The translations under genes and the position numbers were made by a program. This document shows positions 3,689-57,948 of a stretch of 64,000 nucleotides of DNA, in pieces (the first letter of the stretch is position 1; every line of letters starts with the position of its first letter). Under the pieces are notes generated by a model. The model searched no databases. It was given only the letters and a program-made list of their open reading frames with translations, and had not been told where the DNA came from. The stretch comes from Escherichia phage vB_EcoM_P8, in the sequence record PV390659.2. One strand, 5' to 3'.

Positions 3689-5461
3689 TTAATTAACTCC
3701 AGTCGCATCAAATACACCAGGAGCAGTTGTACTCGTAACAGGTGTCATATTATGAACGACAGTATTTTTCTTAATAACATTATTAGTATTATTGATTGAA
3801 GGAGATGCTTGTTGAACAGGAGCTTGCTGTGCTTTGTTCTTTTCTATTACCTGGACTTGTTTTGCTTCTGGCGATTTAGCAGAAGTTTCAGGCTTGGCGT
3901 TAGGCTGATTTTTCTTGAGCTCTTGATAAGTAGCATCAATTTTAGAAAATCTAGCAGCAAGTTCTTTTTTAACTGCCGGTGAATTATTTAAATCCGGGTC
4001 ATCCATCCGTTTTTTAAGGTCTTCATAGGCAGCTTCAACTGATTTAACTGTTGAGTCTTTACTCATATCAGCTGAATCAGCATATTTTTCAAAGCGAATC
4101 ATCGCGGCACGCGCTTCATTAGCCTTCATTAAAGCATTTTTTCTTTCTTCAGGTGAAAGTTGCTTTAATTTTTCTTCTTCTGCTGCACGTTCTTCGTCGG
4201 TAGTTAGTGCTTCTTTATTATCAACGCCACGAATCCAGTTAGATGCACGAGTTTTCCAATTAGCAATTTTATCTAATCCTTTTGCTATCGGACCAAGGTC
4301 TCCATTCATTCGTTTATCTTGATAATTTGCAACTTTTTCCTGGTCTTCTTTATTGAGAGATGCTCCAGTAGAATTTTGGAAATTTTCTAGCGCTCTTCCT
4401 TCTACTTCATCAGCGGTATCCTTCATACCAGGAATAACTCGAAGAATTGCCGCAGATAATTTAGCCATTCCAAGCTGAATAAGTTCTCCTAAATTATAAA
4501 GAACCTTTCCAAGCCCTTCTACAATAGCTACTGTCAATCCGCCCCAATCTCCAGCTTCCCAGAATTTTTTAATTTCATCAATAGAACTAAAGATGCTCTG
4601 TAATAAAGGACCCCATGTTCCAGTTTCGCTAGAGAATTTAGTAAAGTCTGTACTAAACAAATCCCAAGCCTGTGAAAATTTATCTGACCAATATTTGAAA
4701 TGAACCATCAGCAGGTCTATTCCGACAACAACAGCCAATATCATTGCTGTCATTTTAGCAGCTTCAATAGCAGCACTGACGGTATACTTAAATAGCATGC
4801 TTGATATTTTATCAGTAATTGAAATAGATTTCTTAAATCCGAAATCAACAGTCTTTGTTAATTTATCTAAAGCTTGAGATAATTTTAAGTTAAATGCGTC
4901 TTTTTTCTGTTTTTCTTCTGGCGATTCTTGTTTAGGTTCAACTGGCTGAGGGGTAGGGAAAAAATCAGCATCAGGATCATTATTAACTGCTTCAGGAGCT
5001 GGTAATAAAGGACCCACAGATTCAGCTGTATCATCCTCAACAACTTTAACAGGAATAGCGCTTTCGACTGTGGCTAAACTAGTTCCTGTTTGTTGAATTC
5101 CGGCTGTCTGGATTTTTTGCTCGAGTAAACTGGTTAATTTATCTAATTTGCTCCCGAGTGATTCACCGATTTCTTTATTAATATTGTTGCCAATTTCGAC
5201 AGTTTCAGCAATTAACTCAGAACCAGCAGTAGTATCACTCACTGCGCTTTCTACATTGTCAATTGCTCCAATTATTTCATTCGATTTTTCTTCGACAGTT
5301 TGAGCAATTAATTCAGAAGCAGCTTGAGCATCATCCAATTTCGTAGATATATCGTTAAGTCCAGATAAAGTGTTAGAAGCGGATTTAGCCGCTTCCTGTG
5401 TTGGTTTATTATCTGAAATAACTTTTCTACGCATCGTTTGCATTTCTTGTGGCTTTTTCAT
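3689..5461 (-). CDS. 29: tail tape-measure / baseplate hub protein gp29
   Basis: 590 aa; coiled-coil-rich; size and order match T4. Confidence 0.8.
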   Translation of the reverse strand: MKKPQEMQTMRRKVISDNKPTQEAAKSASNTLSGLNDISTKLDDAQAASELIAQTVEEKSNEIIGAIDNVESAVSDTTAGSELIAETVEIGNNINKEIGESLGSKLDKLTSLLEQKIQTAGIQQTGTSLATVESAIPVKVVEDDTAESVGPLLPAPEAVNNDPDADFFPTPQPVEPKQESPEEKQKKDAFNLKLSQALDKLTKTVDFGFKKSISITDKISSMLFKYTVSAAIEAAKMTAMILAVVVGIDLLMVHFKYWSDKFSQAWDLFSTDFTKFSSETGTWGPLLQSIFSSIDEIKKFWEAGDWGGLTVAIVEGLGKVLYNLGELIQLGMAKLSAAILRVIPGMKDTADEVEGRALENFQNSTGASLNKEDQEKVANYQDKRMNGDLGPIAKGLDKIANWKTRASNWIRGVDNKEALTTDEERAAEEEKLKQLSPEERKNALMKANEARAAMIRFEKYADSADMSKDSTVKSVEAAYEDLKKRMDDPDLNNSPAVKKELAARFSKIDATYQELKKNQPNAKPETSAKSPEAKQVQVIEKNKAQQAPVQQASPSINNTNNVIKKNTVVHNMTPVTSTTAPGVFDATGVN

Positions 5462-53574: not shown

Positions 53575-54168
53575 ATGAACACACTGAAGAAAATTGTTGA
53601 GTTTATTCGCACTAAACTTGGTTCTGCTATGGCTAAAAATCTATCTGTTGAAGAACAGTATACTGCTGCAGCAGCAAAACTTCTTGATAAAATTAAAGAC
53701 CTAAAAACTGCTTCTGTTAAATCTATTAATGAAGAAAAACGTATTCGTGAACTTGTTATCGAAAAGAATCGACAAGCCGAATCAAAAGAGCGTGAAATTC
53801 GCAAACTTCTTTCCGAAGGTCAAGATGTAACAATGCATGCTAAGCTCGGTTTACTATATCGTCGAACAGCTGAGCAGTTGACTACTAAAGCTGATGGTTA
53901 TGCTGAAATGCGAATTGAAATCGCCAAGAAAGTAGTTGAGTTAGATGATGCTCGTCAAGAACTTGCAGTTAAATTGGAATATATCCGTGAAACTCGTGCG
54001 GCAAATGCTCTTGGAATTAGTACTGCTGATGATGTAGTTGAAATCGCAGCGCTAACTAAGGTTGATATTGAAGATACCCTTGCTCGAGTTGAAACCTTTA
54101 ATGGTAATATTTCTGGGGTTGAAACTACCTCTGCCGATGTTCAGGAATACATTAATTCTCTGAAATAA
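53575..54168 (+). CDS. coiled-coil protein resembling the PspA/IM30 family, 197 aa
   Basis: all-helical heptad-rich sequence; C-terminal segment DTLARVETF resembles the PspA AMARFESFE region. Confidence 0.45.
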
Positions 54169-54173
54169 TGATA

Positions 54174-54195
54174 AGGGGCTTCGGCCCCTATTACT
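54174..54195 (+). terminator. terminator-like hairpin after the PspA-like gene
   Basis: aggggc-ttcg-gcccct; weak U-tract. Confidence 0.4.
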
Positions 54196-54209
54196 TGGAG
54201 TAAATAGGA

Positions 54210-54818
54210 ATGAAAATGCAAAGTGATTTCAATTCAATGTTTGAAGAGTTCCAAAGACAAGTTGATGTTCCAGACCAATTACTAAATGCTCTTAAACGTA
54301 TGGCAGAAGGACGTAATTACTATTGGGGCTCTTCGTATGAAACTGATGAAAGTCTTTCTGGAAGACTTTATAGAGGTAAAAAGTCTTTAATACGTCCTGG
54401 AATACTCATTAAAAGTATTGAATCAATTCATTCATTGACATGTGATTTTGATGTTGAATTTACTGATTTCATTTCTCCTGAATGGACAGTTTGTTATTTA
54501 AATGACGATTATGATTATCTTGGCGTTTATAGTTTAAGTGACGCATGGTTTAAACGTAATTTACAAAAGTCAAATTTATTTTATATTGATACTACGGTAA
54601 AATTTCAGGGAAAGAAATATTTCTTTACTCTTATAGTTGATTCTGAAACAAAGCATGAAAATAAACGTATTCTTAGTAAAAAGAATATCTTAACTATTGT
54701 TGATGATCTTTTTGATAAATTCGTGGAAAATCCTAATTTTGAAAGCGATTTATTATTAGAAAAATTTGTTAAGGAATGTAGAGAATATGTCAAAGCCATC
54801 ACTATACCTTCCAAGTAA
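54210..54818 (+). CDS. hypothetical protein P1, 202 aa, with C-terminal F-V-x-E-C-R motif
   Basis: first gene of a translationally coupled array; C-terminus EKFVKECREY. Confidence 0.55.
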   Translation: MKMQSDFNSMFEEFQRQVDVPDQLLNALKRMAEGRNYYWGSSYETDESLSGRLYRGKKSLIRPGILIKSIESIHSLTCDFDVEFTDFISPEWTVCYLNDDYDYLGVYSLSDAWFKRNLQKSNLFYIDTTVKFQGKKYFFTLIVDSETKHENKRILSKKNILTIVDDLFDKFVENPNFESDLLLEKFVKECREYVKAITIPSK

Positions 54819-55179
54819 ACCTGTGAAGTATGAACTAAAGCGTCAGCTAATTCCTACTGATGTATTAATAGGTCCTGTGACAGCTATATCATTTGTAATT
54901 CTATTGATTGTTGGAATGGTTATAGACTTTATGACTGATATTGAATCTGGCGTAATATTTTTGTTAGTATTAATTCTTCCATTAGTAGTTCCATTTTTAT
55001 TGGTACCTGTAAATTGGGTAGGATATTGGTATCAAGGAAGGCATTATCGTAAACGTGTACGTGAATGGAAAGCTCAGTGTAAAAAGATTAAAAAGGAACA
55101 CCAGCTTAAACTAAATATGTATGAATTTAATGAAATTATGAAATTTGTTAAGGAATCACGATGCAAAAGCCAAAACTAA
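54787..55179 (+). CDS. small membrane protein P2, two TM helices, C-terminal KFVKESRCK motif
   Basis: start moved to ATG 54787; overlaps the P1 end; two hydrophobic helices. Confidence 0.55.
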   Translation: MSKPSLYLPSKPVKYELKRQLIPTDVLIGPVTAISFVILLIVGMVIDFMTDIESGVIFLLVLILPLVVPFLLVPVNWVGYWYQGRHYRKRVREWKAQCKKIKKEHQLKLNMYEFNEIMKFVKESRCKSQN

Positions 55180-55535
55180 ATAAAGTCAAATATTCTTTTT
55201 CTGAGTCATTTTTAATTTTTGCTGTAGCGTTGGCTGCAGCTCTTGCTGGTAGTCTTATTGGATTAATGATTGACTGTATTATTTTAAACATCCGCAGTAA
55301 CGTCAGCGGTATAGTAGATATAATAGAAGTTTGGAGTGAACTTCATTATACTATAGCGATTTCATTATTTTCATTCTTTGGTATTATTTTATATTTTCAT
55401 TATGATAATTTTAAAATAAATTGGCAAAGAAAAAAGGATTACAAAATACAATTAAAAGAATATAATAACTACATGTCTTATATTGAAAATGAATCAATGA
55501 AAGAATTCGTGAATGATTGTAGGAAAATCAAATGA
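55161..55535 (+). CDS. small membrane protein P3, two TM helices, C-terminal EFVNDCRKIK motif
   Basis: N-terminus MQKPKLNKVKY parallels P2 MSKPSLYLPSKPVKY; overlaps the P2 end. Confidence 0.55.
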   Translation: MQKPKLNKVKYSFSESFLIFAVALAAALAGSLIGLMIDCIILNIRSNVSGIVDIIEVWSELHYTIAISLFSFFGIILYFHYDNFKINWQRKKDYKIQLKEYNNYMSYIENESMKEFVNDCRKIK

Positions 55536-56020
55536 TTTTAAAAACTCGCTGGTATGATTTAGATGATGGGGACGATGGCATTCCAGTTGATAGAGTTGAC
55601 TGGAATGGCTGTTCCGAAGATATGAAAAATTTGTTAATTAGGGAGTTTAGAATGGGATATCAACCAGTTAAGCCATCTACTGCAACAGATGATAAATTCG
55701 TGTGTATTCAAAATGGTCGTGCTAAGTTAACGAACGCTGATTGGTTCACAGATAAGAAGGTTATTCTGTGGTATATTATTAGTTTTCCTGTGACATCATT
55801 TGTATTTTGCTTCTTTGGAGAAAGTCCAATAGGCAGAACGGAAGATTGGATTCTTTTAATTATACTTGTTAATATTTTTACAGCAGCAGTACTATCAGGA
55901 ATATGGTGCGTGTTCATTGAAATGCCATGGCGGTTACGTAGGCAGCAAAAGATTTTTGATGAAAAGAAATATACTCAAAATTTAAATAATTTTATCACTG
56001 AATGCAGGAAATTAAAATGA
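55532..56020 (+). CDS. membrane protein P4, 162 aa, two TM helices, C-terminal NFITECRKLK motif
   Basis: ATGA overlap with P3; soluble N-terminal domain then two TM helices. Confidence 0.55.
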   Translation: MILKTRWYDLDDGDDGIPVDRVDWNGCSEDMKNLLIREFRMGYQPVKPSTATDDKFVCIQNGRAKLTNADWFTDKKVILWYIISFPVTSFVFCFFGESPIGRTEDWILLIILVNIFTAAVLSGIWCVFIEMPWRLRRQQKIFDEKKYTQNLNNFITECRKLK

Positions 56021-56457
56021 AAACACTATCAGCTGGTATTATCTTTATGACCGAAGATAAAGATTTATTCATGGGACGGGTTACTGGTTCTCGTAAGCCT
56101 GGAATGATGGCACATCGCTGGGATATTCCAAAGGGCCGCGTAGAAAATTCTGATTTAAGCGCACTAGATGCAGCACGAAGAGAATGCTCAGAAGAGACCG
56201 GTTTTAGCAATTATAGTCCAGACCTTCTAAAAGACCTAGGTGTATTTAAATATTCTAGTAATAAAGACTTACAGTTATTTTATTATACGATTCCAGTAGA
56301 GCATGAGATGTTTAGAAATTGCCATTGCGAGTCTTATTTTGAAAATAAAGATGGCGTTATGATTCCAGAGATGGATGCTTTTGCTCTTATTCCTCGTACT
56401 CAGTGGCAATATGTGATGGGTCCTTCACTTTACCGAATAATGAACAGCCTCTTTTAA
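56017..56457 (+). CDS. nudE: Nudix hydrolase NudE
   Basis: Nudix box GRVENSDLSALDAARRECSEETGF; start moved to ATG 56017 (ATGA overlap with P4). Confidence 0.8.
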   Translation: MKTLSAGIIFMTEDKDLFMGRVTGSRKPGMMAHRWDIPKGRVENSDLSALDAARRECSEETGFSNYSPDLLKDLGVFKYSSNKDLQLFYYTIPVEHEMFRNCHCESYFENKDGVMIPEMDAFALIPRTQWQYVMGPSLYRIMNSLF

Positions 56458-56988
<531 letters not shown>

Positions 56989-57473: not shown

Positions 57474-57948
57474 ATGAAAACATATCAAGAATTTATCACT
57501 GAAGCAGCTATTAATTCTCAAATTATTGCTGAATCTTTTACTGATCTTTTGAAATTTAAAAAAAGGTCAAAAAATCACTGCTGTATTGGATGATGGTACA
57601 GAAGTTGAGATGGATGTACAGGGATATAATTATGCAGTAGATGGAAAACTGTATAATAAATCCCATGCTAAATTTGATTCATTTGACGACTTTGTTAATA
57701 CAGTTGAAGATGAAAAAACTCGTAGATCAATTTCAACTGGTGATGCTAAGGTTCTTATGGCACACGGTCATGAACGTATTCGTGCTAAACAGAATAAAAT
57801 GGGTGAAGATAATTTCGCATTAGTTGGTTATCAATCTGGTAAGCAAACTTATGGCTATCAGCGTACTGCTACCATGTATAATAAGAATGGTAAAATCGCT
57901 TTCGTGAATAGTAAAGGTTCTATTCAGTACGTCAAATCATTCAAATAA
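57474..57948 (+). pseudogene. internal-protein-like gene with a CTS leader (MKTYQEFITEA) interrupted by a +1 frameshift in an A7 run (57558..57564)
   Basis: frame-0 ORF 57474..57593 (39 aa) and frame-1 ORF ..57948 join into one 157-aa reading frame if one A is removed; strong ribosome-binding site before 57474. Confidence 0.55.

Follow-up and report, generated by a model that had tools for sequence, protein, structure and literature searches.

A C-terminal tail shared by the overlapping genes e.5, e.4, e.3, and e.2 of a T4-like phage

Four overlapping genes of Escherichia phage vB_EcoM_P8 encode proteins that end in the same short peptide, here called the tail, and this tail recurs on proteins of different architecture across T4-like phages. 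The genes lie in a 64,000-nucleotide stretch of the phage DNA (sequence record PV390659.2), referred to below as the window, and had been numbered P1 to P4 in a preliminary description of that stretch. Judged by DNA identity and gene order, the window is Tequatrovirus DNA and P1 to P4 are the T4 genes e.5, e.4, e.3, and e.2. The codons and positions in which the tail is found across lineages show that it is, as far as sequence comparison can tell, selected as a peptide. The defensible statement from profile comparisons is that only the C-terminal 20 to 40 residues are demonstrably shared, which would make the tail one module carried on different bodies. The four genes are as follows.

e.5 (P1), 54210..54818, + strand: 202 amino acids (aa), soluble; tail FVKECR at 54765-54782
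e.4 (P2), 54787..55179, + strand: 130 aa, two transmembrane (TM) segments; tail FVKESR at 55144-55161
e.3 (P3), 55161..55535, + strand: 124 aa, two TM segments; tail FVNDCR at 55506-55523
e.2 (P4), 55532..56020, + strand: 162 aa, two TM segments; tail FITECR at 55991-56008

RESULTS

The tail in the window and across T4-like phages

Re-reading of the translations bore out the C termini given in the preliminary description, EKFVKECREY, KFVKESRCK, EFVNDCRKIK, and NFITECRKLK. The motif proposed there, F-[VI]-x-[ED]-[CS]-R-[KC], stands over its six-residue core, F-[VI]-x-[ED]-[CS]-R, which is common to all four proteins, and fails at its seventh position in e.5 (FVKECRE). Written as a regular expression, F[VI].[ED][CS]R, the core has four matches in the six frames of the window, all of which are these tails. 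A hidden Markov model (HMM) of the tails of other genera ranked the window tails first among 511 six-frame open reading frames (ORFs), with 16.1, 12.6, 11.1, and 9.2 bits versus 6.1 bits for the next. Over the whole 167-kb genome (2,493 six-frame ORFs), the full tail HMM gave the four tails 15.2 to 18.6 bits versus 7.4 bits for the next and found no tail beyond those of e.5, e.4, e.3, and e.2; with the other-genera HMM, e.3 at 7.6 bits was level at this scale with a 41-aa ORF on the noncoding strand (7.7 bits).

A profile search across T4-like phages had been proposed as a check, and the motif proved to be conserved in orthologues: tails are present in 13 lineages, including Mosig-, Gapriver-, Dhaka-, Kanagawa-, Jiaoda-, Karam-, Biquarta-, Ishiguro-, and Pseudotevenvirus. 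The C-terminal segment in which e.5, e.4, e.3, and e.2 all end has as its consensus [LI]-x-x-F-[IV]-x-x-C-[RK]-[KR]. At least a dozen further small tail-bearing proteins occur in T4-like genera other than Tequatrovirus. When IMG/VR was scanned for DNA that encodes exactly FIKECRK, with Arg as AGR, 44 matches were returned, 2 of which are real C-terminal tails, both from Mosigvirus and with e.6, the gene upstream of e.5, nearby; the remaining matches are out of frame or are an internal match in an unrelated family.

Junctions between the genes and selection on the peptide

The overlaps of the four genes with one another and with the downstream gene nudE lie where the preliminary description had placed them: 32 nucleotides (nt) at e.5/e.4, 19 nt at e.4/e.3, and the 4 nt of ATGA at both e.3/e.2 and e.2/nudE. 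Every junction has the Shine-Dalgarno (SD) sequence of the next gene inside the upstream ORF, at a spacing of 5 to 10 nt from the ATG. For e.4 and e.3 it is AAGGAA (54771-54776 and 55150-55155), which falls within the K-E codons of the e.5 and e.4 tails, respectively; for e.2 and nudE it is AGGAAA (55521-55526 and 56006-56011), which falls within the R-K codons of the e.3 and e.2 tails. These features agree with the earlier claim that the genes are translationally coupled. The two kinds of junction repeat described earlier were likewise recovered, namely the 16 identical nucleotides aaatttgttaaggaat at e.5/e.4 and e.4/e.3 and the pattern tgYaggaaa...aaatga at e.3/e.2 and e.2/nudE. Since the SD sequences lie inside tail codons, coupling accounts for the purine-rich charged positions of the tail. 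The junction RNAs are less folded than shuffled controls (z, +0.7 to +1.25); neither a hairpin nor a junction-specific promoter was found at the four junctions.

Across lineages, all synonymous codons are in use at the conserved residues (TTT and TTC for F; ATT, ATC, and ATA for I; GTN for V; TGT and TGC for C; AGA, AGG, and CGN for R). The distance from F to the stop codon ranges from 6 to 31 residues, and in RB43, EBPL, and POP12 the tail stands 25 to 31 residues ahead of the stop. The tail is also present where no downstream gene overlaps it, the gap to the next gene being 68 nt in 44RR and 30 nt in pKp20, where the bearer is a 102-aa protein. These observations support the earlier contention that the motif is not a by-product of the ribosome-binding site. 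The motif is thus both conserved in orthologues and unexplained by a nucleotide element, the two points on which the preliminary description had let its proposal stand or fall.

One tail on soluble and membrane proteins

The e.5 family gives the clearest view of the tail, which is the most conserved part of its members. Hydropathy analysis predicts no TM segment in e.5. In a ten-lineage alignment, proteins at the e.5 position are 17 to 19% identical, except for Mosigvirus at 45%, and, the initiator Met aside, no column is invariant except F186 and C190, with R191 nearly so. A HMMER search of 1.84 billion representative proteins placed the family in 25 clusters only, and every full-length representative among them carries F-[IV]-x-x-C-R. 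Members that stand alone, in 44RR, EBPL, and POP12, retain the motif. The tail is helical (residues 181-196) in the AlphaFold2 (AF2) model of e.5.

Each of e.4, e.3, and e.2 has two TM segments by hydropathy, and counts of K plus R show basic N- and C-terminal parts and acidic short loops. By the positive-inside rule this distribution fits a predicted N-in/C-in topology with cytoplasmic tails. The three proteins have a common architecture, a basic N terminus, two TM segments, a basic juxtamembrane stretch, and the tail, to which e.2 adds a 76-aa N-terminal domain ahead of its TM segments. Hydropathy and charge counts therefore agree with the preliminary description of P2, P3, and P4 as two TM helices followed by a basic stretch and the motif, and the N-terminal pattern that it had noticed in P2 and P3 was found as M-x-[KR]-P-x-L...Y in e.4 and e.3 and recurs in two-TM proteins of other genera.

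The further proposal that the array is a tandemly duplicated membrane protein family stood in part: e.4, e.3, and e.2 are membrane-like and duplication is plausible, but e.5 is soluble and the homology is confined to the tail. In profile-profile comparison with hhalign, e.4 matched e.3 with 79.9% probability (E, 1.4e-5) over 38 C-terminal columns, and e.3 matched e.2 with 83.8% probability over 19 tail columns; with the tail removed, these values fell to 9% and 1.7%, the level of reversed-sequence controls. Outside the C-terminal 19 to 38 columns, hhalign detected no homology among e.4, e.3, and e.2, so that a shared module is indicated and full-length paralogy is not demonstrated. Among PHROGs, e.3 has a weak cross-match to the e.4 family phrog_2604 (E, 0.008).

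The bodies that bear the tail are thus the soluble domain of e.5, two-TM hairpins, which occur in other genera too, and e.2 with its 76-residue domain; several small soluble proteins of 80 to 135 aa join them in other genera. In Aeromonas phage ZPAH1 (locus L040 of those fetched for comparison, 4149-5324), soluble proteins of 156, 159, and 80 aa directly follow e.6 and all carry tails (FIKKCRGMVK, FVRKCRDIMK.., and FIKECRKIVS), none being on a membrane protein. The module can therefore exist without two-TM members. Proteins resembling e.2 were seen in Mosigvirus and in Yersinia phage P8 (L003, 7771-8262; L005, 7700-8287), with an N-terminal W..DDGD.GI..VDW.C domain, two TM segments, and the tail FITECRNLR or FIEECRK. 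About 3.5 kb separates their genes from the e.5-e.3 array, which means that e.2 has changed its place with respect to that array.

Genomic setting of the array

Over positions 54100-56500, the window matches Escherichia phage vB_EcoM_BMB16 at 100% identity, T4 at 92%, and about 500 Tequatrovirus genomes at 90 to 99%. The names e.6, e.5, e.4, e.3, e.2, nudE, and e are present in the annotated records of ime09, RB51, RB14, and T2, and the order e.6-e.5-e.4-e.3-e.2-nudE-e is that of T4. The features flanking the array in the window are as follows.

e.6, 53575..54168, + strand: 197 aa, all-helical, upstream of the tail-bearing genes; phrog_1203 match
Stem-loop GGGGCUUCGGCCCC with a UUCG tetraloop, 54174..54189, + strand: in the 41-nt gap between e.6 and e.5
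nudE, Nudix hydrolase, 56017..56457, + strand: Pfam NUDIX, E 2.7e-13; outside the tail family
Lysozyme gene e, 56494-56988: downstream of nudE, with denV beyond

The four tail-bearing proteins match the families phrog_2607 (e.5; E, 5e-109), phrog_2604 (e.4; E, 4e-71), phrog_2330 (e.3; E, 1e-61), and phrog_2203 (e.2; E, 3e-78), and precomputed assignments place e.5, e.4, and e.2 in the Pfam families Phage_T4_Y06P, Phage_T4_Y06O, and Phage_T4_Y06M. Their UniProt counterparts are Y06P, Y06O, Y06N, and Y06M. Our own Pfam and NCBIfam scans of the four proteins gave nothing significant, and PHROGs and Pfam both keep them as separate families of unassigned function. Several public records name e.4 or e.3 homologues "sulfurtransferase" or "head outer capsid protein" and e.6 "host specificity protein"; these names look like propagated misannotations, for which the sequences offer no apparent support. 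Two motif likenesses were considered and rejected. A rhodanese-like C-R-K active site, after the "sulfurtransferase" name of e.4, does not suit proteins that have two TM segments or are otherwise unrelated, and the Cys is missing from the e.4 lineage; a likeness of F-I-x-E to the internal-protein capsid-targeting sequence MKTYQEFIAE and the gp21 cleavage site [LI]-x-E fails in most e.5-family members, which have a residue other than E at position 4.

The most constant neighbor of the tail is e.6. A tail-bearing gene directly follows it in 11 of the 13 lineages and lies within 3 kb of it in all 13; in RB43 the tail-bearing gene is the second after e.6, and in Karamvirus PG7 such genes lie 1.2 and 2.6 kb downstream. 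The earlier idea of an operon shared with the lysozyme gene holds for Tequatrovirus and Jiaodavirus, the only lineages in which the array is linked to nudE and lysozyme, and does not extend to Mosig-, Gapriver-, Dhaka-, and Kanagawavirus, in which unrelated genes follow the array. In these four genera, e.3 is followed by a second tandem array (L003, 4357-5151; L004, 4691-5941; L009, 4522-5766; L010, 4710-5788) that encodes soluble proteins of 65 to 105 aa ending in G-x-W-[VI]-S-S-S-x-x-C at the stop, often with TAAGGAA after the Cys codon. No ORF ending in W-[VI]-S-S-S-x-x-C is present in the window.

Two further observations concern reading frames downstream. An additional A within an A-run breaks the ipIV-like internal-protein gene of the window (57474-57948; N terminus, MKTYQEFITEA) into two ORFs, 57474-57593 and 57586-57948, where T2 has a single 157-aa ORF; either the frameshift is genuine or the homopolymer was misread in sequencing. 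In the T2 record LC348380.1 (L002, 3811-4782), a T-run difference removes the nudE stop, so that nudE and e form a 323-aa ORF, and the record annotates this nudE-e fusion and also e.

Gain and loss of genes at the junctions

The number of two-TM genes per array varies from one to three. T2-type phages lack e.2, and their e.3 ends in the tail FVSDCRKLK, whose DNA switches from the e.3 type to the e.2/nudE type within TGYAGGAAA. In Dhakavirus, which lacks e.4, the e.5 tail (...AKEVQNGTA) combines parts of the e.5 and e.4 tails of Gaprivervirus, joined by a crossover within AAGGRGGTTC..AATG. Phage phiE142 (L019) lacks e.3, and truncated forms of e.2 occur in the T4 reference annotation (309 nt) and at locus L008. 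Given this pattern of presence and absence and the crossovers at junction repeats, the array behaves as an accordion of in-frame cassettes. These comparisons show the repeated junctions as apparent crossover points at which whole genes have been gained or lost in frame. The crossovers inside repeats in T2 and Dhakavirus also render plausible the duplication, by unequal recombination at the junctions, that the idea of a tandem family implied.

The neighboring gene e.6

By tblastn, e.6 was found in 1,106 phage records. Its product is 43 to 88% identical across the tail-bearing lineages and far more conserved than its neighbors. The AF2 model of e.6 (predicted local distance difference test [pLDDT] score, 75) has helices at residues 3-22, 25-80, 86-145, 151-160, and 186-196, forming an N-terminal helix, a long hairpin (25-80/86-145), and short C-terminal helices. 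When the model was compared with the PDB by Foldseek, the top nine hits were all Vipp1, followed by archaeal CdvB2, with weak values (E, 1.8e-3 to 6e-2; TM score, 0.42 to 0.51). In searches by sequence, PspA_IM30 was absent from the 25 most recurrent weak Pfam hits of 32 e.6 members, the e.6 profile reached Vipp1 among PDB sequences at E values of 1.2 and 2.9 only, and hhalign of e.6 against 78 enterobacterial PspA sequences gave a probability of 0.4%. The modeled likeness of e.6 to Vipp1 and PspA is a lead, not a finding.

The hairpin in the gap between e.6 and e.5, GGGGC-UUCG-GCCCC, has a fold energy of -16.7 kcal/mol (z, -1.4) and lacks an obvious run of T on the + strand. Possible roles are partial termination of transcription and the stabilization or processing of RNA, by which the hairpin would set e.6 apart from the coupled array.

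DISCUSSION

Proposed role of the tail

The explanation that we favor, at somewhat less than even confidence, is that the genes e.5, e.4, e.3, and e.2 form an accessory early module in which the tail is the docking helix for a common cytoplasmic partner. The module would comprise one soluble protein and three inner-membrane hairpins of N-in/C-in topology. The tail, acting as a docking or oligomerization helix, would let the hairpins and e.5 bind one common partner in the cytoplasm; e.6 or the globular core of e.5 would be the most plausible candidates for this partner, and a host protein may be named as well. The resulting complex would assemble at the cytoplasmic side of the inner membrane at an early stage of infection, and its role would be accessory, depending on the host or the condition, rather than essential. 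In the supplement of the CRISPRi-ART study (PMC11879866), the guides shown for T4 e.2 to e.6 are labelled "Not Fit" and the prior essentiality of these genes is entered as "UNKNOWN," and natural phages exist without e.2 or without e.4. The genes e.2 to e.6 appear to be dispensable in the laboratory, which fits an accessory, host-dependent role.

Several observations weigh against a docking helix with a common partner. The amphipathicity of the tails is modest, with a hydrophobic moment (muH) of 0.40 to 0.49 that 4 to 22% of shuffles equal. In the e.4 lineage and certain others, S, I, V, M, or A takes the place of the tail Cys, so thiol-dependent chemistry is not general. The AF2 model of e.5, built on a 23-sequence alignment, is poor (pLDDT, 58.5), and for that reason no binding groove is assignable in e.5. 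The candidate partner e.6 is divided from e.5 by a stable hairpin, so expression of the two may differ.

Alternative explanations

One alternative, which we consider unlikely, is that the junction homologies serve as recombination linkers for in-frame cassette shuffling, with a functionless peptide. The precise presence/absence polymorphisms and the crossovers inside junction repeats (e.2 in T2, e.4 in Dhakavirus), the missing e.3 of phiE142, and the variation from one to three two-TM genes per array are what such linkers would leave behind. Modular shuffling mediated by elements that combine an early promoter with a stem-loop (PeSLs) has been documented in T4-type phages, in the accounts given by Arbiol et al. 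2010 (PMC2839356) and PMC4122927, and the array junctions would be its coding analogue. Recombination needs DNA homology, however, yet the DNA of the tails varies synonymously while the peptide stays; moreover, the e.5 family keeps the motif where it stands alone, and the junctions carry no promoter and stem-loop. The more convincing reading is that crossovers occur at the repeats because the tail is shared, not that the tail is shared for the sake of crossovers.

A second possibility extends the docking idea to the model of e.6 and is, in our judgment, improbable as well. Here e.6 would be a Vipp1/PspA-like membrane remodeller of the ESCRT-III superfamily and the tails its docking peptides, which would make the array a phage Psp-like system re-tooled by cassette swaps. 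Changeable membrane anchors (e.4, e.3, e.2, and their counterparts) together with soluble e.5 would recruit or regulate e.6 through their tails. If the link to Vipp1 were true, e.6 would be a phage-borne ESCRT-III member with membrane adaptors of its own.

The tail might instead tag the early proteins that bear it, for example as a degron or as a modification site at the Cys or Arg; recognition by a host or phage enzyme would then time the abundance or activity of all of them together. The motif is short, stands near the C terminus of unrelated proteins, and has a C-R pair that does not vary in the e.5 family. Arg-specific ADP-ribosyltransferases and a Lon inhibitor are encoded by T4, and modA and pin are annotated in the genome of the present phage. 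We know of no enzyme that recognizes the tail motif, however, and the Cys is dispensable in the e.4 lineage. The variable distance from the C terminus is also unlike that of classical C-terminal degrons, and we hold a regulatory tag to be quite unlikely.

A comparably small probability attaches to the suggestion that the array proteins control lysis or the envelope together with the endolysin, as holin-, antiholin-, or spanin-like factors, or act in superinfection exclusion. Lysis timing and superinfection exclusion had been offered as guesses in the preliminary description. Small membrane proteins can mediate exclusion, as do T4 Imm and Sp, and e.4, e.3, and e.2 are small inner-membrane proteins encoded upstream of nudE and e in Tequatrovirus and Jiaodavirus. 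This linkage to lysozyme is lost in Mosig-, Gapriver-, Dhaka-, and Kanagawavirus, however, and a holin, rI, imm, and an Rz1-like spanin component are annotated elsewhere in the genome. Furthermore, the CRISPRi-ART guides shown carry the label "Not Fit," and e.5 and other tail-bearing proteins are soluble. No lysis or exclusion family, and none of holins, antiholins, or spanins, is among the PHROGs, Pfam, and NCBIfam matches listed for the array proteins, and no PHROG match at E values up to 0.1 relates them to Imm or Sp. We found no pointer to either guess.

That the tail is a nucleotide by-product, a junction conserved for an SD sequence and an A/U-rich coupling leader or for a RegA-type operator with an incidental peptide, is highly improbable: every window junction does place the next SD in tail codons (AAGGAA as K-E, AGGAAA as R-K), two junctions share 16 identical nucleotides, and aaAUUUGUUAAGGAAU resembles, at 12 of 15 positions by our count, the RegA consensus aaAAUUGUUAUGUAA from systematic evolution of ligands by exponential enrichment (SELEX) as quoted in PMC3014915, but the SD sequence covers only charged positions and not F, [IV], or C, its register in the peptide differs between the two kinds of junction, no structure is seen in the junction RNAs, F, C, and R are encoded across lineages by all their synonymous codons and kept in the e.5 family at less than 20% overall identity, and the tail persists with gaps of 30 to 68 nt to the next gene and, in RB43, EBPL, and POP12, 25 to 31 residues before the stop.

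Significance

T4 is the best-studied large lytic phage, yet its genes e.2 to e.8 are still listed as conserved hypothetical. Our literature search found no functional study of e.2 to e.6, which go unmentioned in the main texts of the CRISPRi-ART paper, the HIDEN-SEQ preprint, and a T4 omics paper. None of the library matches, source names, and papers searched connects e.5, e.4, e.3, and e.2 by a common tail, and the searched literature and family databases hold no account of its breadth across genera, its triple role, or its linkage to e.6. The genes have long been known as ORFs; the shared module appears to be undescribed. One short peptide joins e.5, e.4, e.3, e.2, proteins of other genera, and the neighbor e.6, and it turns five separate unknowns into one testable module whose tail can be mutated, swapped, or used as bait. 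One stretch of DNA is under three constraints, as a protein motif, as the ribosome-binding site for the gene that follows, and as a recombination joint for the in-frame gain or loss of genes.

Comparison with known systems

The closest counterparts of the array are T4 e.5 to e.2, which are orthologues in DNA that is 92% identical and of the same gene order. The two differ at e.2: the T4 reference annotation gives this gene 309 nt, whereas the window encodes a full-length protein of 162 aa.

In Psp systems, membrane partners recruit PspA through cytoplasmic helices. The present locus resembles the Psp and Lia modules (PspA, Vipp1, or LiaH with PspB/PspC or LiaI) in that the long-hairpin protein e.6 adjoins small membrane proteins with cytoplasmic C-terminal segments for which helices are predicted. 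It differs in that e.6 has no sequence-level relationship to PspA or Vipp1 and in that there is no PspF-type regulator; e.4, e.3, and e.2 have no Pfam match at E values up to 0.1, and therefore nothing links them to PspB or PspC.

As in other translationally coupled overlapping genes, the next start lies inside or abuts the upstream ORF at all four junctions, with the SD sequence 5 to 10 nt upstream. Coupling explains the K, E, and R codons of the tail, but not its invariant F, [IV], and C, and tails without an overlapping downstream gene stay unexplained by it.

Like PeSL cassettes, the array has short repeats that flank accessory genes in a hyperplastic region and that coincide with the end points of insertions and deletions. 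PeSLs, however, are intergenic and consist of an early promoter and a stem-loop, whereas the repeat of the array is coding, combining the tail, an SD sequence, and a start codon, and is conserved as a peptide.

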